Source: Myxococcales bacterium
GTDB lineage: Bacteria; Myxococcota_A; UBA9042
Reading direction: 5' to 3'
Assembly (NCBI GenBank): GCA_947491025.1
Contig: CANLIC010000003.1
Span: 114,005-178,004, forward strand
DNA length: 64,000 bases
Numbering within the stretch: the first letter of the stretch is position 1; each line of letters opens with the position of its first letter. Of the stretch, positions 43,164 through 52,751 are shown in pieces. The notes under the pieces were generated by a model. It worked only from the letters and a program-made list of their open reading frames with translations. It was not told where the DNA came from and did no database searches. Made by a program: the position numbers and the translations under genes.

Positions 43164-44345
43164 CTACTCCTCGTCTTTGGCGTTGATCACGGTCCGCACC
43201 GCGTTCTGGAAGGCGGTGAGATCCAGCGATCCTGAGCCATTCGGCGCGAAGTACATGATGTTCTTGCCATTCTTCGCGTAGCCGTAGCCGCTGTTGCGGA
43301 TCTGCGAGCCAGCGAACTTGCCGGCAAAGGGGGCGTTCATCTTGGCCCAGGCGTCTACAGCGCCGTTGTCTTGGAAAACCGGAATGGTCTTCACCTTCGC
43401 GGTCAAGGCCTTGGGCGTGTTGCTTGCCTTGTCGTTGATGACCAACATCACCACGTCAGACTTGCCGGACGCGTTCGCCTCGTCTTGCAGCTTCTGCATG
43501 TCGGCGGCCTGCGCGATGCAGGAGGCACACCAGTCCGAGACCAGGGCGACGACGACCTTCTTGCCCTTGAAGGCATCGAGGCCGTAGGTCGTGTCAAAGC
43601 CGGGGCTGCCCGGGTTGATGTCCTTGAGCTCCCACTGCGGGAAGTCGTGGAAGGTCTTGACGCACGCAACGTTCTCGTCGCCCTTGCTGACCACGTCGCC
43701 GGTTAAGGTGATCTTCGAGAGGTCGACGTCAAAGGTACGGCCCTTGAAGCGCATGGTCAGCGGCCCAGCGAAGGTCGGCTTGAGCGTCACACCGCGCAAC
43801 GTCGCCTCCGTCAGGCCGGCGTTCGGCTGGCCAAGCGGCGCCATGGGCAAGCTGCCGGTTCCGGCCGTCGAGGTGTAGACGACGACGCCCTTGGCCGGCT
43901 CGGTGGCCCAGCCGGGGCAGTCGATGGTCTGGATCAGCTGATCGTCTTGGTAGATTCCGGACTTGGCGTAGAAGCTCGCGGTCTTCAGGACCAAGCCCTC
44001 GCCCGCGAAGCCCGCCTGGTAGTCGAGCTGCAGCTTGCAGCTGCCGTCTGGCCGCGCGACCTCGATCGACAGCGAGGGCACGCAAGCCAGGCCGCCGACG
44101 TCCTTGTTGATGCGGTGCATCATCGTCGCCTTGGCCTCAAGCCCGTCGTACGCGACCGTGAAATTGCCGCCGTCGATCGCCGCGCTAAAAGCGCCGCCGG
44201 CGCGCAGCCCCTGTGACCCAAGCCCAGCGCCGCCCGTGCCGCTTTCTGCCGCGCAGCCCGCCGCCAATGCCACGACCGCGAAGACGGCGAGCGCCATCCG
44301 GGTAACGGAGCCCAGCCATAGGCCCGTCGAGATCTGCAGAGCCAT
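43164..44345 (-). CDS. Lipoprotein with C-terminal thioredoxin-fold (redoxin) domain
   Basis: GGGAGG RBS, lipobox AAGC, a beta-rich N-terminal domain and C-terminal WCASC. Confidence 0.75.
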   Translation of the reverse strand: MALQISTGLWLGSVTRMALAVFAVVALAAGCAAESGTGGAGLGSQGLRAGGAFSAAIDGGNFTVAYDGLEAKATMMHRINKDVGGLACVPSLSIEVARPDGSCKLQLDYQAGFAGEGLVLKTASFYAKSGIYQDDQLIQTIDCPGWATEPAKGVVVYTSTAGTGSLPMAPLGQPNAGLTEATLRGVTLKPTFAGPLTMRFKGRTFDVDLSKITLTGDVVSKGDENVACVKTFHDFPQWELKDINPGSPGFDTTYGLDAFKGKKVVVALVSDWCASCIAQAADMQKLQDEANASGKSDVVMLVINDKASNTPKALTAKVKTIPVFQDNGAVDAWAKMNAPFAGKFAGSQIRNSGYGYAKNGKNIMYFAPNGSGSLDLTAFQNAVRTVINAKDEE

Positions 44346-44790: not shown

Positions 44791-45192
44791 ATGAGCAACG
44801 ATTACCAGGGCATGGGCGGTGGTTACGGTCGCGATGGCGGCGGCGGCGGCGGCGGCGGCTACGGCGGCGGCGGCTACGGCGGCGGTGGCGGTGGCTTCGG
44901 CGGCGACTACGGCGGCGACGGCGGCGACAAGCCGCGCGGTGATCGGCCGCGTCGCGCCTCGGCGCGCGCTGTTGAGTTCCGCGCTCTCGAGGTCTCGGTC
45001 CAGGACGGCAACGTCAACCGCGCGCTGTCGATGCTGAAGCGCAAGATGGCCAACGAGGGCATCTACAAGGAGCTTCGCAAGCGTCGCTACTTTGAGAAGC
45101 CTTCCGAGGAGAAGAAGCGCCGCAGCCGCGAGGCAGATCGCCGCCGCAAGAAGGCGATTCGTATCGCGCGAGAGCGCGGCGCGCAGGCCTGA
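44791..45192 (+). CDS. rpsU: 30S ribosomal protein bS21 with Gly-rich N-terminal extension
   Basis: LEVSVQDGNVNRALSMLKRKMANEGIYKELRKRRYFEKPSEEKKRR core. Confidence 0.9.
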   Translation: MSNDYQGMGGGYGRDGGGGGGGGYGGGGYGGGGGGFGGDYGGDGGDKPRGDRPRRASARAVEFRALEVSVQDGNVNRALSMLKRKMANEGIYKELRKRRYFEKPSEEKKRRSREADRRRKKAIRIARERGAQA

Positions 45193-46618: not shown

Positions 46619-47545
46619 ATGCAAAGCCCCTCGATCCGTCGCCTGATGCCCGCCCGCCCGCTGCTGCTGGGCCTTCTGGCCGCCGGCCTCTGCATCTCCG
46701 CTTCACCAGCGGCGCGCGCCGCCAACGTCGACGCTGTCCTGTCGATCTTGCAGAAGAAGGGCAACGCCGGTGCGGCACGCGGCCCCAAGACCATCGATGA
46801 CGCGGCCAAGGCCAAGGTCGATGGCATGGCGGAGCAGCTGGCACAACGCACCGGCGGCAAGGCCTACATCGTCGTCCTGCCGGAAGACGAAGAGCCCGAT
46901 GATTACATCAGCATCTACGGAAAGATGGGGCTCGGCGGCAAGGACGTCCTCATCGCGACCAACGGCAAGGAGTGGGAGCTGCGCTGTGACGCGATCGCCA
47001 AGGCGCAGAAGGACACGCTCTTCGCCCAGACCTTGGGCACGGGCGGCAACCCTCTGCAGCGGCTGGAGAAGCTGACCACCGCACTGCCCGGCGCCATCCA
47101 GTCGAGCCAGAAGGTGCACGGTGGCACCAGGGCGATCGCGACCACTGGCGCCCGGCCCTATCAGCCCCACGTGCAGCACGAGAGCGGATTCCCTTGGGGC
47201 TGGACGCTGTTTGGTGCCCTCGTCGCTGGTGCGGTCGGCTTCGTCTTCTGGCGGCGCAAGCAGCGCGATCGCGCCCTCGCTGCTGAGCTCAAGGCCGCCC
47301 TGGATCCTGGCGAGTCTTCCATGGCCGAGATCTTCCTCGGCATGGACGGCCTGGAGCAGCATCCCCGCTTCGACCAGCTGCTCAGCCGCGCAACGGGACT
47401 GTCCAGCAAATTCGATGAATTGAAGGCTCAGAGCCCGAGTCGGCAGGCCATCGTCCAGGCGGAGTCGTTGTCGCGGCAAGCGCGCGAGCTGCATGGTGAA
47501 TTCCGGGTCCTGGGCGCGCCCGCGAGTCGCCTGTCCGGCCTCTAG
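46619..47545 (+). CDS. TPM-like domain membrane protein
   Basis: Signal peptide, QLAQRTGGKAYIVVL...MGLGGKDVLI (TPM-like), one TM helix followed by RRK, and a cytoplasmic helical tail. Confidence 0.6.
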   Translation: MQSPSIRRLMPARPLLLGLLAAGLCISASPAARAANVDAVLSILQKKGNAGAARGPKTIDDAAKAKVDGMAEQLAQRTGGKAYIVVLPEDEEPDDYISIYGKMGLGGKDVLIATNGKEWELRCDAIAKAQKDTLFAQTLGTGGNPLQRLEKLTTALPGAIQSSQKVHGGTRAIATTGARPYQPHVQHESGFPWGWTLFGALVAGAVGFVFWRRKQRDRALAAELKAALDPGESSMAEIFLGMDGLEQHPRFDQLLSRATGLSSKFDELKAQSPSRQAIVQAESLSRQARELHGEFRVLGAPASRLSGL

Positions 47546-47582
47546 GCTTCGACGCAGCCCCGTCAGTCGCAAAGGAGCTTCC

Positions 47583-48824
47583 ATGCGCCTCGTGAGTCAG
47601 GGTCGAATCTACCTGCCGGGCGAGCAGGTGTTCAGAGCGCCTCGCTTTTTCGACAAGTTCAAGCACTTCTTCGGCGGCGAGATGGACCTGCGCACCGGCG
47701 AGCAGAAGCTGTCGCGCGACGCGCTGTCGTTGACCGAGGCCATCCAGACCGGCCTCGCGAGGGCCGGCGTCGACAACGCCGTGAGCTTGGTGGTCGACAC
47801 CGACGTCGTGTTTCAAGACGCCGAGGGGCAGCGCGGCGACGGCGAGATGTTGGTCAGCGCCATGCGTTACGCCCACGAGCGCTTCGAGTCGGGCTTCGAG
47901 ACGTTGCGCGCCGTGTTCGAACATGAGGGCCACGGACTGCACGCCCTCATCGAGGTGACGGTCAAGGCCAAGCACGCCCAGGAAGCGCCGGCGGCGACGA
48001 TCGCGATTGGTGCCCGCATCGACGAGCTGCGGCCGCGCGACGGGGAGTCGATGGAGGAGGCCCGCGAGCGTATCGGCAAGCGTCTCGCGGACACCGCCCT
48101 GGTTCCGACGGCCCGCAACGCGCTCGCCGACCTCGGCAGCCGGATTCAGCAGGGATTGGCGCGCACCTTCGTTCAGGGGCGCGTCGAGATGGACCAGCCC
48201 GAGGTGGCGGTGGTGCGCCCGAGTGGCGAGGAGGTCCGTGACGCAGCCATCCACCGCGACGAGCGAAGCGCCCACCTGCGCGAAACGCCTCACTATCCGC
48301 GAGCCGGCGCCTACGGACCCTATTACGACCCCTGGGGCACCTACTACCGCGATCCGATGGACACGATGGTCAACCTCATGATCCTCGATGCGATGCTGGC
48401 TCCGCGGCACCACTGGGGCTATGGCGCCTATGGGCTCGGCCACGGCTGGGCCAGCTACGGCGCCCCGGTACACGTCATCCACCATCACGGCGGGGCGATC
48501 TGCGACGCCAGCGAGATCGGCAGCTACAGCAGCCAGTTGGGCGGCGTGGGCCAGGTGGCGAGCCTCGACTTTGACTCGGCGAGCTGGGACGATTCGGCGA
48601 TGTCGGGCTATGATGCTGGCCAGTCCTCCTGGGCCTCCACAGGCAGCGGCGCTGGCACCAATTCGAGTTTCGATTGCGTCGGTTATGATGATCCCAACCA
48701 ACGCGCAGCCTCGTGGGATTGCTCGAGCGACTGCTCGTGGGACTGCTCGAGCGACTGTTCCTTCGATTGTTCGAGCGACTGTTCTTGGGACTGCTCTAGC
48801 GACTGCTCGACGAGCTGGGATTGA
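47583..48824 (+). CDS. Protein with C-terminal S[W/F]DCSSDC repeats; candidate radical SAM substrate
   Basis: AAAGGAG RBS and ATG 47583. About 240 aa globular N-terminus, an aromatic/Gly-rich middle and a tail of (SWDCSSDC)2-SFDCSSDC-SWDCSSDC-STSWD. Its stop overlaps the rSAM start. Confidence 0.8.
   Translation: MRLVSQGRIYLPGEQVFRAPRFFDKFKHFFGGEMDLRTGEQKLSRDALSLTEAIQTGLARAGVDNAVSLVVDTDVVFQDAEGQRGDGEMLVSAMRYAHERFESGFETLRAVFEHEGHGLHALIEVTVKAKHAQEAPAATIAIGARIDELRPRDGESMEEARERIGKRLADTALVPTARNALADLGSRIQQGLARTFVQGRVEMDQPEVAVVRPSGEEVRDAAIHRDERSAHLRETPHYPRAGAYGPYYDPWGTYYRDPMDTMVNLMILDAMLAPRHHWGYGAYGLGHGWASYGAPVHVIHHHGGAICDASEIGSYSSQLGGVGQVASLDFDSASWDDSAMSGYDAGQSSWASTGSGAGTNSSFDCVGYDDPNQRAASWDCSSDCSWDCSSDCSFDCSSDCSWDCSSDCSTSWD
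48711..48806 (+). repeat. 24-nt coding tandem repeat x4
   Basis: tcgtgggattgctcgagcgactgc and three variants that differ mostly at synonymous positions. Confidence 0.9.
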
Positions 48825-50383
48825 GCTTGGAACTCGAGGCCGACGGCACCGTCGCAGCGATCGCCTCCGCACCCTCGGCGGCGCTGCCAGGGGCGATGGC
48901 GGCGCTGCCGATCTGGCGGGGCGACCGGCTTTTGCAGGGCATCGTTCGCGGCCAGCGCTTCGTGCACAACCCGGCGGTGCAAGACGGCCTGCTCTTGTTG
49001 TCACGCCGCGCCGGCGCCCTGCTCGACAGCGCGGACGGCGCGCCGCTCAGTCAGACCCTCGAGCGCATCCACATCGGCGCGGCGTCCGATCCGGCCTGGC
49101 TCCGTGAGGCGAGGCTGCTGCTTCGCTACGGCATGGTCCAGCATCCGCGTCACGAGCAGCTCGCCGTCGACGCATGGCTCGGTCGGCGCCCGAAGGCGGC
49201 CGAGCGCAGCTTCGACCTCTGGCTGCACGTGACCAACGACTGCAACCTCGACTGCCCCTACTGCTACATCGACAAGTCCAAAGCGCGCATGGACGACGGC
49301 GCCATGGACCGGGCTCTGCGCGCCATCGAGGCCGCCGCCGCCGCCGGGCACTGCGAGCGGGTGCACGTCCGGTATGCGGGCGGCGAGCCGATGTTGCGTT
49401 TCGCCCAGCTGCAGCGCTTCCACGCCGACGCTGTCGCCGCCTGCGCCCGCCATGGCGTGCGCTATACCGCCGCGATCTTGAGCAATGGCACGGTCGTGCC
49501 AGACGGCGCGCCGGCGTGGGTGCGGGCCCACGGTGTCGGGCTCTCGCTCTCCATCGATGGCCTCGGCGATACGCAAGACGTCATGCGCCCGACGCGCGCT
49601 GGGCGGGGAAGCTGGCAACACCTGGAGCGCGGTCTCGCGGCCTGGCGGCGTGGCGGGGTTGAGCCCTACGTGCTGGTCACGCTGGGTGCCGGCAATATCG
49701 ATGAGGCGCCGGCGCTGGTCGACTGGCTGCTGGCTGAGGGGCTGGCTTTTCGCTTGAGCCTGGTGCGCGACCTCGAACTGGGCAGCGGCGACCTGGATGA
49801 TAAGCACGGCGCCCAGCGTCCGCGCCAAGCGCCACTGGCGGCAGGCGGCATCCTGCAAGGCGCGCCGCTGCAACGGGTGCTGCGGCCCTTGATGGCGGCC
49901 TACGACGCCATCGAGGCCCACGTCGGGGCCCAGATCGACGCCGGGGTCAAGGTCGCGCCGGAGTTCCGCGCCCGCCATCGCTTCTGCGACTTGTCGCCCT
50001 TTCGCCCGATCGGCAAGGCCTGCGGGGCCGGCAGCAACTACGCGGCGATCGGCCCAGCCGCGGCGTTCTCGGCCTGCCAGGCGGCGCTGCACCACGGCGA
50101 TGAGGTCGCGACCCTGGACGGCGATCGCTCCATCGTCGAGCAAGCGCGCGCACACCAGCCCTTTGGTGCCTTTACCCGCGCCGAGGGCAACGTCGACTGT
50201 CGCACCTGCCGGCACCAACTCAGCTGCGCCGGCGGCTGTCCGCTCCTGTTGTACCGCCGCGACGGTCACATCGACGGCCGATCGCCCTTCTGCGAGATCT
50301 TCCGCGCGGTCCTGCCCCGTATCGTCCGCATCGCCGCCCTGGAACTTGTCGGGGTCCAGCGTCGCGCTGCGGCGGCTGTGTAG
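48821..50383 (+). CDS. Radical SAM/SPASM domain maturase
   Basis: CNLDCPYC, YAGGEPML, ILSNGT and SLSIDG; SPASM CGAG...SAC and CRTCRHQLSCAGGCP...PFC. Confidence 0.92.
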   Translation: MSLELEADGTVAAIASAPSAALPGAMAALPIWRGDRLLQGIVRGQRFVHNPAVQDGLLLLSRRAGALLDSADGAPLSQTLERIHIGAASDPAWLREARLLLRYGMVQHPRHEQLAVDAWLGRRPKAAERSFDLWLHVTNDCNLDCPYCYIDKSKARMDDGAMDRALRAIEAAAAAGHCERVHVRYAGGEPMLRFAQLQRFHADAVAACARHGVRYTAAILSNGTVVPDGAPAWVRAHGVGLSLSIDGLGDTQDVMRPTRAGRGSWQHLERGLAAWRRGGVEPYVLVTLGAGNIDEAPALVDWLLAEGLAFRLSLVRDLELGSGDLDDKHGAQRPRQAPLAAGGILQGAPLQRVLRPLMAAYDAIEAHVGAQIDAGVKVAPEFRARHRFCDLSPFRPIGKACGAGSNYAAIGPAAAFSACQAALHHGDEVATLDGDRSIVEQARAHQPFGAFTRAEGNVDCRTCRHQLSCAGGCPLLLYRRDGHIDGRSPFCEIFRAVLPRIVRIAALELVGVQRRAAAAV

Positions 50384-50392
50384 CGGCTGAAC

Positions 50393-50773
50393 CTAGTTCG
50401 CCTCGACCCCGGCGAGGCGCGCCTCGCACTCGGCACAGCGCTCCGCCCAAGGCGCCTCGTCGAGCACCTGTAGCGGCAGCGCGGCGGCACAGTCCACGCA
50501 ATGGCCATAGGCGGGCTGCGCCTCGGGGCCGGCGGCGAGGCGCTTCTGGGCGTCGCTGATCTGGTCGAGGAAGGCGCGCACCCGCTCCAGGGGCGTCTGG
50601 CCGGGCTTGCGCTCGTGCGGCAGCTTGAGGTCGAGCAGCTTGGCGTTCTGACTGGCCAACATCGAGGTCAGCTTGGCGTTGACGGCCATGCCCTTGCGTC
50701 CAAGTTCGAGCCGCCAGCGCGCGCGTCGCGTCCGATCGGCAAGCTCGAGGGGTGTCGCCGGGTGAATGCGCAT
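50393..50773 (-). CDS. DksA/TraR-type C4 zinc-finger protein
   Basis: LDQISDAQKRL...YGHCVDCAAALPLQVLDEAPWAERCAEC. Confidence 0.75.
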   Translation of the reverse strand: MRIHPATPLELADRTRRARWRLELGRKGMAVNAKLTSMLASQNAKLLDLKLPHERKPGQTPLERVRAFLDQISDAQKRLAAGPEAQPAYGHCVDCAAALPLQVLDEAPWAERCAECEARLAGVEAN

Positions 50774-51074
50774 CGGATCCCCAGTGCCCGCGTCGACGGC
50801 GCATCGTCGCCGCCCTTCAGACCGTGGGCAGCGTCAGTGTGGCACGGACGGGGTCGCGACGCACGCTTGCGGTTGGGCCCAAGTTCCCGCCCATGTGCAA
50901 CAGAGCAGCATCCTTCGTGCTCCGGCGTCCCAGCAGGCAGCAATGCGTCTCCTGCCGCAACTTTGGTCGCTGCACCGCATCCAACCCGGCGCTGCCGGGG
51001 CCAGGCGTGACAACGCCGGGTGGGCATCGGCCAGCAATATGTCGGTCCGTCGCACGAATCATGGCCCTCTTTGC

Positions 51075-51102
51075 TTGCCTTTCCGATCTTGCCGACTACC
51101 AT
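51075..51102 (+). promoter_or_regulatory. Putative sigma70 promoter of the OmpA-family gene
   Basis: TTGCCT-N16-TACCAT about 90 nt upstream of ATG 51192. Confidence 0.35.
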
Positions 51103-51191
51103 TCGCGCAGGTGTGTGTGCGGACGCCGCTCTCTCGTCCGTACAACGCCTCCTTCTGCTCCCGCATGGCGGGGGCGCGGAGCCAGCAACTC

Positions 51192-52751
51192 ATGAGGAAT
51201 TGGACTCTTATTGGCCTAGCCTTGGCCATGTGGGCGCTTCTGGTGGCGGCCACTCCCCTCGATCACTCCGGCTCCATCGAGGTCGGTGTGTTCGGCGGCT
51301 ACAACGTCATCTCCGAGGATTCCGAGCTCGGCAATGCCAAGAACCCGGGCAACGTGCCTGAGTCTGGCCTCCTGCTTGGCGGCCGGGGCGGCCTCAACTT
51401 GAACAACGGCCTCGGCGCAGAGCTCGAGTTCAAGTACGTGCCGACCGACTACAGCAACGGCGGCGGCGCGGCGCCGATCATGGGTTTCCGCGGCAATGGT
51501 CTCGTGCACTTCGGCGTCATGGGCCACCGGCTGCGGCCCTTCCTTCTCATCGGCGCTGGCGGCGAGTACCTGAGCCGCGCCAATGACTTGAAGGGCGACG
51601 ACGCCACCGTGACCGACGTCGACTTCGAGTGGCACCTCGGCGTCGGCGCCAAGTACCACGTGCTCGACAACCTGCTGCTGCGACTCGACGCTCGCTACGT
51701 CAACATCGCCGGCCGCAACGACCTCACCAGCACCAACCTCGAGTTCATGCTCGGCGTCTCCTGGTGGATGGAGGGCAAGCCCGCCGACACCGACGAGGAC
51801 GGGCTGGCCGATCGCGACGACAAGTGCCCGGAGCAGGCCGAAGACAAGGACGGCTTCGAGGACTCCGACGGCTGCCCGGAGGCGGACAACGACCAGGACG
51901 GCATCCTCGACGCCGCGGACAAGTGCCCGCTCGAGGCCGAGGACAAGGACGGCTTTGAGGACGCCAATGGCTGCCCCGACCCGGACAACGACGGCGACGG
52001 GGTGCCGGACACCGCCGACAAGTGCCCCATTCAGGCGGAGGACAAGGACGGCTTCAAGGACGAGGACGGCTGCCCGGACCCGGACAACGACGGCGACAGC
52101 GTGCTCGATGGCGACGACAAGTGCCCGAACCAGGCGGGCGTCAAGGAAGAGGCCGGCTGCCCTGTGCAGGACAAGGACAAGGACGGCATCCCGGACAAGC
52201 TGGACAAGTGCCCAGATCAGGCCGAGACCTTCAACGGCATCGACGATGAGGACGGCTGCCCGGACAAGAAGTCGCTGGTCGTGATCACCGAGACCGAGGT
52301 CAAGATCTTGCAGAAGGTCAACTTTGAGACCGGCAAGTCGACCATCAAGTCTGACAGCTTCGAGCTCCTCGACACGGTGGCGTTGGTGCTCAACAAGCAG
52401 CCGCAGATCAGCAAGATCATGACCGAGGGCCATACCGACGACGTGGGCGGCGACGACGCCAACTTGGCCTTGTCGCAGGGCCGCGCTGAGGCAGTGCGCA
52501 ACTACCTGATCGAGCAGGGCGTTGCCAAGGATCGGCTGGAGGCCAAGGGCTACGGCGAGACCGCCCCGCTTTGCCTGGAGGTCGCCACGTTGGCCAAGGA
52601 CAAGGCTGCCGAGAAGAAGAACAAGGCTGCGCTCGCCGTCTGCCGTGAGCAGAACCGCCGCGTGCAGTTCAAGATCTTGGAGATTAACGGCAAGGCAGTC
52701 GAGGCCACCGAGACGGTGACCATCAAAGAGAAGAAGGAAGTGACCGAGTAG
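51192..52751 (+). CDS. OmpA family protein with beta-barrel and thrombospondin type-3 repeats
   Basis: Signal peptide, 8-strand barrel-like region, DKCPxxAEDKDGFEDxDGCPDPDNDGDG repeats, EGHTD, NLALSQGRA and NRRVQF. Confidence 0.92.
   Translation: MRNWTLIGLALAMWALLVAATPLDHSGSIEVGVFGGYNVISEDSELGNAKNPGNVPESGLLLGGRGGLNLNNGLGAELEFKYVPTDYSNGGGAAPIMGFRGNGLVHFGVMGHRLRPFLLIGAGGEYLSRANDLKGDDATVTDVDFEWHLGVGAKYHVLDNLLLRLDARYVNIAGRNDLTSTNLEFMLGVSWWMEGKPADTDEDGLADRDDKCPEQAEDKDGFEDSDGCPEADNDQDGILDAADKCPLEAEDKDGFEDANGCPDPDNDGDGVPDTADKCPIQAEDKDGFKDEDGCPDPDNDGDSVLDGDDKCPNQAGVKEEAGCPVQDKDKDGIPDKLDKCPDQAETFNGIDDEDGCPDKKSLVVITETEVKILQKVNFETGKSTIKSDSFELLDTVALVLNKQPQISKIMTEGHTDDVGGDDANLALSQGRAEAVRNYLIEQGVAKDRLEAKGYGETAPLCLEVATLAKDKAAEKKNKAALAVCREQNRRVQFKILEINGKAVEATETVTIKEKKEVTE

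Follow-up and report, generated by a model that had tools for sequence, protein, structure and literature searches.

The substrate of the SCIFF maturase is a peptide of about 45 aa, and PapA, the substrate of PapB, is a short peptide made up of leader and core, with its Cys and Asp in CX3D spacing; the QhpC subunit that is modified by QhpD remains a protein. QhpD/QhpC has been cited as a precedent for Cys-to-Asp/Glu thioethers made by a radical SAM/SPASM enzyme in a protein subunit (PMC13692751). CrpC installs ranthionine links in C-X-X-D/Q-type motifs (e.g., CAVD) of the 28.8 kDa repeat protein CrpA, and the pair has no known protease or exporter (PMC13692751). Here we analyze a window of 64,000 nucleotides (the whole stretch of DNA studied) from a Myxococcota bacterium. 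An earlier reading from the letters of this window (the sequence-only reading) proposed a candidate new protein-modification system. It does have precedents, namely CrpC/CrpA (2026), QhpD/QhpC, and the "Cys-Xaa-Xaa-Xaa repeat radical SAM target" families of NCBIfam, which belong to the same kind of system.

The tailed protein and its neighbors

Table 1. Features of the locus (positions in the window)
Feature	Position	Strand	Basis or remark
308-aa membrane protein	46619..47545	+	ORF; Pfam TPM_phosphatase below cut-off
AAGGAG ribosome-binding site	47572..47577	+	5 nt ahead of tailed-protein ATG; read from sequence
Tailed-protein gene, 413 aa, putative substrate	47583..48824	+	ORF list and translation; homologue searches
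Conserved N-terminal domain, about 296 aa	47583..48470	+	Two alignments and profile search
Eight tandem D-C-S-x units, proposed core region	48717..48812	+	Sequence, repeat finder, alignment
Radical SAM/SPASM enzyme	48821..50383	+	520 or 518 aa, depending on the start (TTG 48821 or TTG 48827)
N-terminal stretch, residues about 30-125, putative peptide recognition (RRE/PqqD-like)	48908..49195	+	Profile alignment with CteB
CNLDCPYC, CX3CX2C for SAM-cleaving [4Fe-4S] cluster	49241..49264	+	Cys141, 145, 148
SPASM region, seven Cys (401, 419, 460, 463, 469, 473, 491)	50021..50293	+	Alignment; matches CteB SPASM region

The protein with a Cys-repeat tail described by the sequence-only reading is real. 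Its translated C-terminus reads ...SWDCSSDCSWDCSSDCSFDCSSDCSWDCSSDCSTSWD, and the x position of its eight D-C-S-x units is S, W, S, F, S, W, S, and T. Residues 380 to 408 hold the eight Cys of the tail, one every 4 residues, and xxD comes after each of the first seven, as that reading had stated for seven consecutive Cys. Tandem Repeats Finder reported arrays of period 12 and period 24 at 48710-48810, and the degenerate DNA pattern (GAYTGYNNNNNN)x3-GAYTGY matched five times in the window, always within the tail, and in 0/100 shuffles. Since the D, C, and S codons of the eight units differ by synonymous third-base changes only, the repeat is maintained at the protein level. No indels appear in contigs of other sequencing runs that read through the tail and across the gene junction: X4 record 4 (48373-49841) has 0 differences to the window, and X6 record 18 (48406-49183) has 1.

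We found no recognisable signal peptide in the tailed protein, and profile searches returned no Pfam or NCBIfam family for it. At E<=1e-3 it has 46 homologues. Residues D387, C388, D395, C396, S397, D399, C400, and S401 are invariant in an alignment of 34 homologues, and the alignment also shows an invariant YDPW...DP segment in the N-terminal domain (residues 248-258). A profile of this domain retrieved, at E<=1e-3, 439 cluster representatives whose tails vary; the Atlas clusters that contain the domain are without a name and come from Myxococcota and Bacteroidota. The source of the cassette is a freshwater myxobacterial genome.

The membrane protein encoded upstream has a signal-peptide-like N-terminus, an outer domain of ~150 aa, one transmembrane helix (FPWGWTLFGALVAGAVGFVFW), and a C-terminal helical domain of ~90 aa. 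The sequence-only reading called it TPM-like; the upstream gene is there, but the TPM_phosphatase match (E 0.019, 15.4 bits) is below the cut-off of 22.1. The gene lies upstream of the tailed protein in loci of taxonomic family f1, is shortened to 204 aa and sits directly 5' of the enzyme in genus g5, and was undetected by tblastn in Polyangiales-type loci. It is thus a neighbor in one taxonomic family only and stands outside the conserved pair. The window's ORFs on either side of the three genes include no peptidase or exporter gene, in agreement with the earlier reading.

The radical SAM/SPASM enzyme

The tailed-protein stop codon (TGA, 48822-48824) overlaps the TTG at 48821, as the sequence-only reading had noted. 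The enzyme could start at this TTG or at the one at 48827; its database entry, P0047, is 518 aa long. The enzyme is translationally coupled to the stop codon of the tailed protein, or lies <=3 nt from it. An ATG at 48896 reads ATC (G48898C) in two other sequencing runs, which argues against a start at that position.

The CX3CX2C motif (residues 141-148) and the seven SPASM Cys are invariant in an alignment of 19 family members, and seven such Cys could hold two auxiliary [4Fe-4S] clusters. Among solved structures, the best match is CteB (5wgg), onto which the enzyme family profile aligns at E 2.4e-39 in one continuous stretch, from profile position 38 and CteB residue 23 onward. The part of CteB that aligns to the N-terminal stretch of the enzyme is presumably its RRE. 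We read this stretch as a putative peptide-recognition domain of RRE/PqqD-like type; a profile search gave no match to Pfam PqqD in the enzyme. With its CteB-aligning N-terminal stretch, radical SAM core, and seven-Cys SPASM domain, the predicted build of the enzyme is that of a peptide maturase.

A profile search of curated families placed the enzyme above none of their cut-offs. The top curated match is QhpD (TIGR03906; 91 bits, cut-off 453), and further scores are 90 bits for PapB (NF047865; cut-off 340), 73 for TIGR03942 (cut-off 349), 73 for the CteB/SCIFF maturase family TIGR03974 (cut-off 425), and 66 for the CrpC family TIGR04463 (cut-off 525). Across five clade members, PapB (90-115 bits) and QhpD (91-103 bits) were top or near-top in all five, and the geopeptide maturase was the top family in one. 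Scoring against SPASM subfamilies, which the earlier reading had suggested, thus favors thioether cross-linkers at scores that are all below cut-off; these matches lie mostly in the generic radical SAM core and so carry little information on chemistry.

Conservation of the gene pair

We asked how often the two genes occur together. Among 28 genomes of family f1, the tailed protein is present in 22, the enzyme in 24, and both in 21. The sole genome with the tailed protein and no enzyme match, G374, has a completeness of 81%, and a contig end truncates its gene. The DC-repeat DNA pattern occurs in 21 of the 28 genomes and in the window's own genome; in the f1 genomes the listed matches all fall on the tails, apart from additional repeats on two further G299 contigs, which the control pattern hit too. 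Membrane protein, tailed protein, and enzyme follow in a row at 16 loci, including that of the window. In genus g2, a DeaD helicase gene and an ORF of no assigned function separate the two genes; 5/5 genomes still have the enzyme, and in three of them it lies 4.2-5.3 kb downstream, on the same contig and strand.

A wider scan with one genome per species yielded 26 Myxococcota-clade enzyme loci, and in 19 of these a (DCxx)n-tailed protein is encoded directly upstream of the enzyme. The pairing is kept at loci L091-L095, whose N-domain is 31-33% identical, and at L098 the N-domain was undetected by tblastn, yet a (DCST)8(DCSS)n tail lies upstream of the enzyme. The paired genes overlap or lie a few bases apart, also in distant lineages. 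Because the upstream neighbor varies among distant loci, our data indicate that the tailed protein and the predicted radical SAM/SPASM enzyme form the conserved unit. In the enzyme tree, the tail-bearing loci include both the f1 clade and separately branching Polyangiales-type rows, and the tail label requires at least three changes.

The sequence-only reading took homologous enzymes without such a neighbor as grounds for refutation; this applies in part, as four lineages have an intact enzyme without one. The seven tail-less loci among the 26 fall in three of the four tail-less tree clusters, the fourth being G241. In genus g5 (3/3 genomes, 94-95% complete), G241, and G120, the enzyme orthologue was found at E 1e-113 to 1e-142. 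These five genomes gave no match to the whole tailed protein or to the N-domain profile; for the last 108 residues of the tailed protein the best hit, at E about 0.4, is not credible, and the (DCxx)4 DNA pattern is absent. The g5 enzymes show dN/dS of 0.09-0.11, indicative of purifying selection, and so must act on another substrate or in another role, whether original or acquired. In the nearest outgroup clade, D-C-x-C motifs are fused in frame to the enzyme N-terminus in 45/54 loci, at a density of 8.9 per 1000 aa; the remaining ORFs of these loci have 0.0086 per 1000 aa. A D-C motif thus accompanies this enzyme group in two arrangements, fused in the outgroup and as a separate tail here.

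Proposed mechanism and alternatives

We lean towards a two-gene cassette whose enzyme closes CxxD thioether rings along the tail of a protein. The 413-aa protein would be made in the cytoplasm and then bound by the enzyme encoded directly downstream, which would move along the C-terminal (D-C-S-x)8 tail. At each unit SAM would be cleaved, the Asp three positions downstream of the Cys would lose a hydrogen on a side-chain carbon, and this carbon would be joined to the Cys sulfur as a non-alpha (ranthionine) thioether, with loss of 2 Da. On a folded carrier domain of 300 aa, the product would bear at most seven four-residue rings (C-S-x-D), each directly following the last, and the tailed protein is probably neither cleaved nor exported as a peptide. 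A modified protein rather than a released peptide, as the earlier reading suggested, fits a conserved N-terminal domain of 300 aa and the absence of peptidase and exporter genes next to the pair. We infer the tail as substrate, the kind of bond, the Asp carbon used, the recognition element, and the role of the product, which may be to bind metal or to dock at the membrane.

Judged from sequence and analogy, Cys-to-Asp thioethers, the chemistry favored by the sequence-only reading, are the best fit, with PapB and QhpD the leading curated matches across the clade and the C-x-x-D spacing of the tail that of the CrpA motif proven to carry ranthionine (PMC13692751). The same pair could instead perform other chemistry, with Cys sulfur joined to an alpha-carbon (sactionine) or to Ser or other acceptors rather than to the Asp side chain. 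In sequence space sactisynthases and ranthisynthases intermix, and overall similarity cannot separate them (PMC10288494), and StsB, SCIFF, and other thioether families match the enzyme at similarly low scores. The Ser following each Cys is also as invariant in the alignment as the Asp preceding it. Given that Asp is invariant in every unit, with the fourth position freely variable, and given the standing of PapB and QhpD in all five clade members, we regard such other chemistry as unlikely.

The tail may also remain unmodified, as a thiolate/carboxylate appendage that binds metal or Fe-S (metallothionein-like or a cluster carrier), with the true substrate of the enzyme elsewhere and the linkage reflecting a shared process, e.g., cofactor supply. 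The same N-domain occurs with many non-Cys tails and without radical SAM neighbors, which means that the tail could function unmodified; the low-complexity tails of such relatives are acidic or rich in Gly, His, or Cys. The selection on enzymes in lineages without the tailed protein points the same way, and the D-C-x-C motifs of the outgroup could equally be an extra metal site. Against this, no complete genome or locus with a tail lacks the enzyme among those inspected (21/22 f1 genomes, the exception being the truncated contig of G374, and 19/19 tail loci of the wider scan), the gene spacing is tight in distant lineages, and the enzyme carries the recognition-type N-terminal domain of peptide maturases. 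We therefore give an unmodified tail only a small share of the probability.

Aromatic three-residue cyclophanes (triceptide-type C-C links from W, F, or Y, with Cys left free), the alternative named by the sequence-only reading, fare worse. W, F, or Y stands in every second unit of the window and of most f1 tails, and the cyclophane-forming families YhhB, FxsB, GrrM, AmcB, and XyeB are among the weak matches, but in the window's enzyme they score under PapB and QhpD. Many paired tails contain no aromatic residue (L091, L092, L095, and L098 have purely DCSS, DCST, or DCSK repeats, including the (DCSS)n or (DCST)n tails of L095 and L098), which makes cyclophanes very improbable.

The sulfatase maturation motif is C/S-x-P/A-x-R. 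A further alternative is an oxidase like the anaerobic sulfatase maturase (anSME), which would make formylglycine from Cys or Ser, either in the tail or in sulfatases encoded elsewhere. In its favor, anSME ranks third among the solved relatives (E 7e-24), PF00884 sulfatase-family genes occur in the window's genome (five matches) and in all five tail-less genomes, and orphan enzymes may act on a sulfatase in trans. We nevertheless attach scarcely any probability to it, as the TIGR03942 score is below cut-off, no sulfatase gene is adjacent (the nearest PF00884 match on the contig is ~148 kb off), the maturation motif is absent from the tail, and the enzyme has an N-terminal recognition domain that, to our knowledge, anSME lacks.

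Comparison with known systems

The putative Cys-to-Asp ring system compares with several described ones. The enzyme aligns with CteB (5wgg/5why) through the N-terminal domain, radical SAM core, and SPASM region, but differs at 5/6 positions that line the active site. The NCBIfam families TIGR04114 and TIGR04117, with the maturase TIGR04115, likewise place a period-4 Cys repeat beside a radical SAM/SPASM maturase. The tail matches the two target families at E 0.9-3.5 (8-10 bits; cut-offs 20 and 50), and TIGR04115 is not among the 25 families listed for the enzyme. QhpD is the top curated match, yet below its cut-off; no amine dehydrogenase subunit genes are among the neighbors inspected, and the tailed protein differs from QhpC in its fold and its repeat tail.

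PapB/PapA (freyrasin-type ranthipeptide) forms repeated Cys-to-Asp thioethers along one substrate (PMC10739248), as proposed here, and PapB is the best or second-best curated family in the five clade members, under its cut-off. The window differs in its CX2D spacing and 413-aa protein substrate. In CrpC/CrpA of Methanococcus voltae (TIGR04463; Dieter et al. 2026), as proposed for the window, a radical SAM enzyme with an RRE and a seven-Cys SPASM domain acts on a whole protein, and CrpA has a Cys-rich C-terminal repeat with C-X-X-D/Q motifs and non-alpha thioethers, as is putatively the case here (PMC13692751). The repeat unit has 4 residues in the window and 17 in CrpA; a conserved domain of 300 aa would serve as carrier in the window, where CrpA has a 47-residue leader-like N-terminus; and the host is a Myxococcota bacterium versus a methanogen (PMC13692751). 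CrpC/CrpA is a precedent for the kind of protein-tail modification proposed here (PMC13692751).

Gene order and the tail repeat

The sequence-only reading had described a protein with a repeated Cys/Asp tail whose gene adjoins a radical SAM gene, and this description was confirmed. The tail ends in eight D-C-S-x units, with its cysteines within residues 380-408, and the array was also found by Tandem Repeats Finder. A degenerate pattern of four DCxx units gave five matches in the window, all of them in the tail, and none in shuffles. Across the array, the codons for D, C and S differ from unit to unit only synonymously. The contig (C3) belongs to a 4.46-Mb metagenome-assembled genome that is 83% complete, the G+C content of the region is approximately 67-72%, and close homologues are named Myxococcales or Myxococcota in their sources. 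Near-identical DNA is present in lake-water and freshwater metagenomes of several studies, and contigs from other studies' runs span the tail and the gene junction without indels.

An alternative TTG at 48827 gives a 518-aa form of the enzyme, which is the protein-database entry, so that either upstream TTG start lies at, or 3 nt past, the stop of the tailed protein. The in-frame ATG at 48896 of the window is ATC in two of the other-study runs, which argues for an enzyme start at the upstream TTG codons.

Features of the window and of compared loci
Feature	Sequence	Position	Strand	Remark
393-aa protein with thioredoxin-fold domain	window	43164-44345	-
S21-like ORF	window	44791-45192	+
308-aa membrane protein	window	46619-47545	+	co-directional with the next two genes
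Tailed protein, 413 aa	window	47583-48824	+	AAGGAG 5 nt before ATG
Radical SAM protein, 520 aa	window	48821-50383	+	TTG overlaps preceding TGA
126-aa protein	window	50393-50773	-
Long ORF with acidic repeats	window	50766-52751	+
Insert between split genes, genome G009 (genus g2)	L042	5844-9351
N-domain homologue and double radical SAM/SPASM protein, genome G125	L044	3517-7275
Outgroup enzyme with N-terminal D-C-x-C	L109	6605-8053
Outgroup enzyme with N-terminal D-C-x-C	L113	6575-8047
Outgroup enzyme with N-terminal D-C-x-C	L120	6608-8074

Several neighbouring ORFs were also noted. The C-terminal half of the S21-like ORF resembles ribosomal protein S21 (read from ...NRALSMLKRKMANEGIYKELRKRRYFEKPSE...) and follows a Gly/Tyr-rich N-terminal extension of approximately 60 aa; the same gene occupies the same place in loci of a second genus of the family, g5. 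The C-terminal part of the 393-aa protein is a thioredoxin-fold domain (Pfam Redoxin, E 3e-8), and the protein gives a weak, sub-cut-off match to the NCBIfam model 'TUGYCR motif thioredoxin fold (seleno)protein'. The 126-aa protein ends in a four-Cys zinc-finger-like segment and matches DksA/TraR models weakly (E 5e-4, far under cut-off), and its homologue in g5 also adjoins the cassette on the opposite strand. In the long downstream ORF, acidic repeats of the DxDxDG type are numerous and resemble thrombospondin type 3 by eye, and the C-terminal region reads as OmpA-type; the actual start codon probably lies well within this ORF.

Conservation of the pair

We analyzed a phylum sample of 401 genomes, 28 of which, besides the window's own, belong to its taxonomic family. 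Within the family the tailed protein was found in 22/28 genomes, an enzyme orthologue in 24/28 and both in 21/28, while three genomes (all of g5) contain the enzyme only and three contain neither. In one further family genome (G374, 81% complete) the protein gene is cut by the contig end and the enzyme has no match. With the tailed protein as a single-protein query, its family was found in 34 of the 401 genomes. All complete homologues within the taxonomic family carry DC repeats; of the matches to a loose DC-repeat DNA pattern across the 401 genomes only the rows of this family were used, since elsewhere simple GACTGC-type repeats match and the reversed control matches in some genomes.

Sixteen loci are ordered membrane protein, tailed protein, enzyme. 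In genus g2 a DeaD helicase gene and one ORF of no assigned family split the tailed-protein and enzyme genes; the enzyme is found in 5/5 genomes, sharing contig and strand with the tailed-protein gene in three and lying on a different contig in two. In one such locus the insert consists of a 496-aa ORF and a DeaD-box RNA helicase gene (Pfam DEAD 2.5e-48), whose product also has DbpA and dimerisation domains. An MscS-like channel gene lies downstream of the enzyme in both g2 and g5.

A species-wide scan found a (DCxx)n-tailed protein immediately upstream in 19 of the 26 enzyme loci of the Myxococcota clade, a count that is not independent of the phylum sample since the two overlap in species representatives. 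These 19 include Polyangiales-type loci (L091-L095), with an N-domain identity of 31-33%, and locus L098, in which the tail is present and the N-domain is beyond tblastn detection. In an enzyme tree of 35 rows, the tail loci comprise the clade of the window's family and the separately branching Polyangiales-type rows, and the tail label changes at least three times. The gene upstream of the pair differs in the Polyangiales-type loci and in L098; what is conserved is therefore the pair of genes, to the exclusion of the membrane protein. The TPM-like identity first given to that membrane protein was not upheld either, as PF04536 (TPM) scored 15.4 bits (E 0.019) against a gathering cut-off of 22.1, and the match is absent in the g2 orthologue.

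The enzyme lies outside curated families

Our data indicate that the enzyme contains the motifs of a radical SAM/SPASM protein. Its SAM-cluster motif CX3CX2C (CNLDCPYC, residues 141-148) is invariant in 19 aligned family members, as are seven SPASM cysteines (401, 419, 460, 463, 469, 473 and 491), which align with the SPASM region of CteB in an arrangement that fits two auxiliary clusters. The Pfam Radical_SAM model was passed (E 9.4e-14; 52.4 bits against a cut-off of 29.5). The Pfam SPASM model did not match the window's enzyme at E<=0.01 and matched an orthologue weakly (E 0.0058). The closest solved relative is CteB (E 2.4e-39), in one alignment that takes in the N-terminal domain, the core and SPASM, followed by ChlB and then anaerobic sulfatase maturase. 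In the N-terminal stretch, a candidate RRE (PqqD-like) recognition domain, the family profile pairs from position 38 with CteB residue 23 onward, and Pfam PqqD gave no match. At six active-site-lining positions, as defined on CteB in the text of PMC10288494, our own mapping, a comparison against CteB only, reads Y,A,L,S,Q,A against F,F,T,S,H,Q.

The proposed scoring against curated SPASM subfamilies placed the thioether families PapB and QhpD at the top, with no NCBIfam model reaching its cut-off: QhpD (TIGR03906) gave 91.1 bits against 453 and the PapB family (NF047865) 89.8 against 340, followed by the DynA and geopeptide maturase models. The CrpC family (TIGR04463) scored 65.9 bits against 525. 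In four other clade members PapB and QhpD were likewise at or near the top, with 104-115 bits for PapB and 54-71 bits for TIGR04463. Such scores stem mainly from the generic radical SAM core and should be read as a lead only. Quinohemoprotein amine dehydrogenase subunit genes had no family match among the flanking ORFs scanned. Taken together, the motifs, the CteB alignment and the sub-cut-off scores indicate a peptide-maturase-type radical SAM/SPASM protein of an uncurated clade, whose nearest named relatives form Cys-to-Asp/Glu thioethers.

Enzymes without a tailed partner

The idea of a dedicated pair stood in part: conservation across 19/26 loci supports it, and strict pairing fails since the tailed protein is absent from the other 7/26. 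Enzymes without such a neighbour had been named beforehand as counting against the pair, together with a sulfatase gene beside the enzyme, of which none was found next to the window's enzyme or near that of five tail-less genomes. In g5 the protein gene is gone and the membrane protein, shortened to 204 aa, is directly followed by an intact enzyme of 516-520 aa. In loci of the type found in genome G120 the gene before the enzyme resembles glutamate-cysteine ligase, and in L097 and L131 it is ferrochelatase-like, both as read from sequence. ORFs of loci other than the window's were called with a home-made GC3 filter, by which short genes can be missed. The enzyme of genome G241 is without its first approximately 120 residues.

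We searched five tail-less genomes (G074, G089, G144, G241 and G120) for a hidden substrate. In these five, the whole tailed protein gave no match, its last 108 residues gave a best E of approximately 0.4, which is not credible, the (DCxx)4 DNA pattern was found in none, and neither was the N-domain profile, an empty result that by itself says little as the search included no positive control. The g5 enzymes have a dN/dS of 0.09-0.11, indicating that they are functional. Since a functional enzyme is present and no stand-in protein was found, the enzyme must serve another substrate or role in the tail-less lineages. Such orphan enzymes may act in trans in the manner of anaerobic sulfatase-maturating enzymes. 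Sulfatase-family genes occur in all five genomes, none of them near the enzyme; for the window's enzyme, the maturase model TIGR03942 scored 73 bits against a cut-off of 349, and the nearest PF00884 (sulfatase) match on the contig lies approximately 148 kb away.

An outgroup clade with fused D-C motifs

The nearest outgroup enzymes, 24-33% identical, come from Chloroflexota, Cyanobacteria and others (loci L103-L157), and most have one to three D-C-x-C motifs at their own N-terminus. Such fused motifs (e.g., DDDCACPD, QCDCDCDCAC) lie in frame upstream of the catalytic domain in 45/54 loci and are enriched approximately 1000-fold relative to other ORFs of the same loci; the D-C-x-C motif was found in 0/26 enzymes of the Myxococcota clade. 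Being fused in the outgroup and separate in Myxococcota, the D-C motif accompanies this enzyme group in either arrangement. The fused motif could serve as substrate or pseudo-substrate, or provide an additional metal site. Six Chloroflexota loci (L105, L109, L113, L120, L130 and L136) have a protein of approximately 970-1150 aa upstream, with a P-loop-like N-terminus in four of the six.

The N-domain family

The tailed protein matches no Pfam or NCBIfam family, and the CXXX-repeat target models TIGR04114 and TIGR04117 gave 8.3 and 9.7 bits against cut-offs of 20 and 50. We found 46 homologues; in an alignment of 34, the tail residues D387, C388, D395, C396, S397, D399, C400 and S401 are invariant, as is YDPW...DP at residues 248-258. 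A profile of the first approximately 290 residues retrieved 439 cluster representatives with highly varied tails (Gly/Asp/Phe-rich, Asp/Tyr-rich, His-rich, (GSSC)n and (DCxx)n). These classes come from a crude regex of our own, applied to the 150 best matches after removal of the 49 shorter than 310 aa, which left 101 proteins. In Atlas the N-domain belongs to clusters without a name, drawn from Myxococcota and Bacteroidota, and no named fold matches it convincingly (model pTM 0.66; nearest named match DUF1779, weak, TM 0.36). Many tails of the family are acidic and of low complexity and, in the (GGDF)n, (GDYDD)n, S/D/W-rich and (DCSS)n types alike (proteins P0167-P0312, loci L027-L034), end in W or DW, and this common ending suggests that the extreme C-terminus may have a shared role.

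Genome G125 encodes a distant N-domain homologue whose tail reads (GSSC)n-CGGGCGGGY, and a gene for a double radical SAM/SPASM protein follows 7 nt downstream. This double protein has 842 aa, and its first half passes TIGR04082 (481.5 bits against 350), a model named SbtM, thio(seleno)oxazole modification maturase. Two other (GSSC)n-tailed loci (L045, L046) have no SbtM-type neighbour, and nothing relevant on SbtM/TIGR04082 was found in main-text literature.

It is conceivable, though we consider it unlikely, that the N-domain represents a family of general carriers ('leader proteins'), coupled through their hypervariable tails to different radical SAM chemistries. Under such a scheme (DCSx)n tails, with this enzyme clade, would be turned into 7-10 four-residue thioether rings in one unbroken row, and this polycyclic appendage would be without described counterpart; (GSSC)n tails would be served by an SbtM-type enzyme, and the Chloroflexota/Cyanobacteria sister enzymes with fused D-C-x-C would be self-modifying.

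Proposed modification and comparison with known systems

We hypothesized that the enzyme forms tandem C-S-x-D thioether rings along the tail, which would number seven in the window's protein. The D, C and S of the tail units are constant while the fourth position varies, and these constant residues, with an Asp at +3 of Cys, led us to propose such rings. The cysteines might instead be joined by sactionine links, or the tail might be left without any modification. The cyclophanes considered in the sequence-only reading are unlikely as the conserved chemistry, because the tails of the Polyangiales-type loci and L098 are pure DCSS, DCST or DCSK units free of aromatic residues, which are thus dispensable. 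C-S-x-D thioethers remain the favoured interpretation.

Thioether rings made by enzymes are found mostly on short antibiotic-like peptides. To our knowledge, whole proteins with such rings are limited to a few cases, QhpC and, since 2026, CrpA. If the tandem rings are formed, the pair would be a bacterial example of thioether modification of a protein, by an enzyme clade that no curated family covers and on a repeat shorter and more regular than any so far, of four residues, each one within a ring. A maturase able to close CxxD rings in tandem along a fused tail could also become a stapling tool for recombinant proteins. Moreover, hundreds of uncharacterised proteins share the large putative carrier domain, and the lineages with the enzyme minus the protein, together with the sister clade with its fused motif, provide a natural experiment on substrate choice.

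The main-text literature contained no description of the pair and nothing relevant on the tail motif strings; Supplemental Dataset 1 of the CrpA paper, which covers RS-associated Cys-rich proteins of bacteria, archaea and eukaryota, may include the family (PMC13692751). According to the text of that paper, CrpC, a TIGR04463 RRE-rSAM-SPASM enzyme, installs ranthionine thioethers in C-X-X-D/Q-type motifs of the 28.8-kDa repeat protein CrpA, and QhpD is named as a further modified-protein case (PMC13692751). PapB forms Cys-Asp thioethers and, as its report describes, tolerates many substrate changes, some of them in the stretch that separates Cys from Asp (PMC10739248). Of the experimental precedents, CrpC/CrpA is the closest: as there, a large protein with a Cys-rich C-X-X-D repeat adjoins the enzyme, a functional likeness and not a family membership. 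The pair would work like CrpC/CrpA, PapB and QhpD, yet it lies outside all their families.
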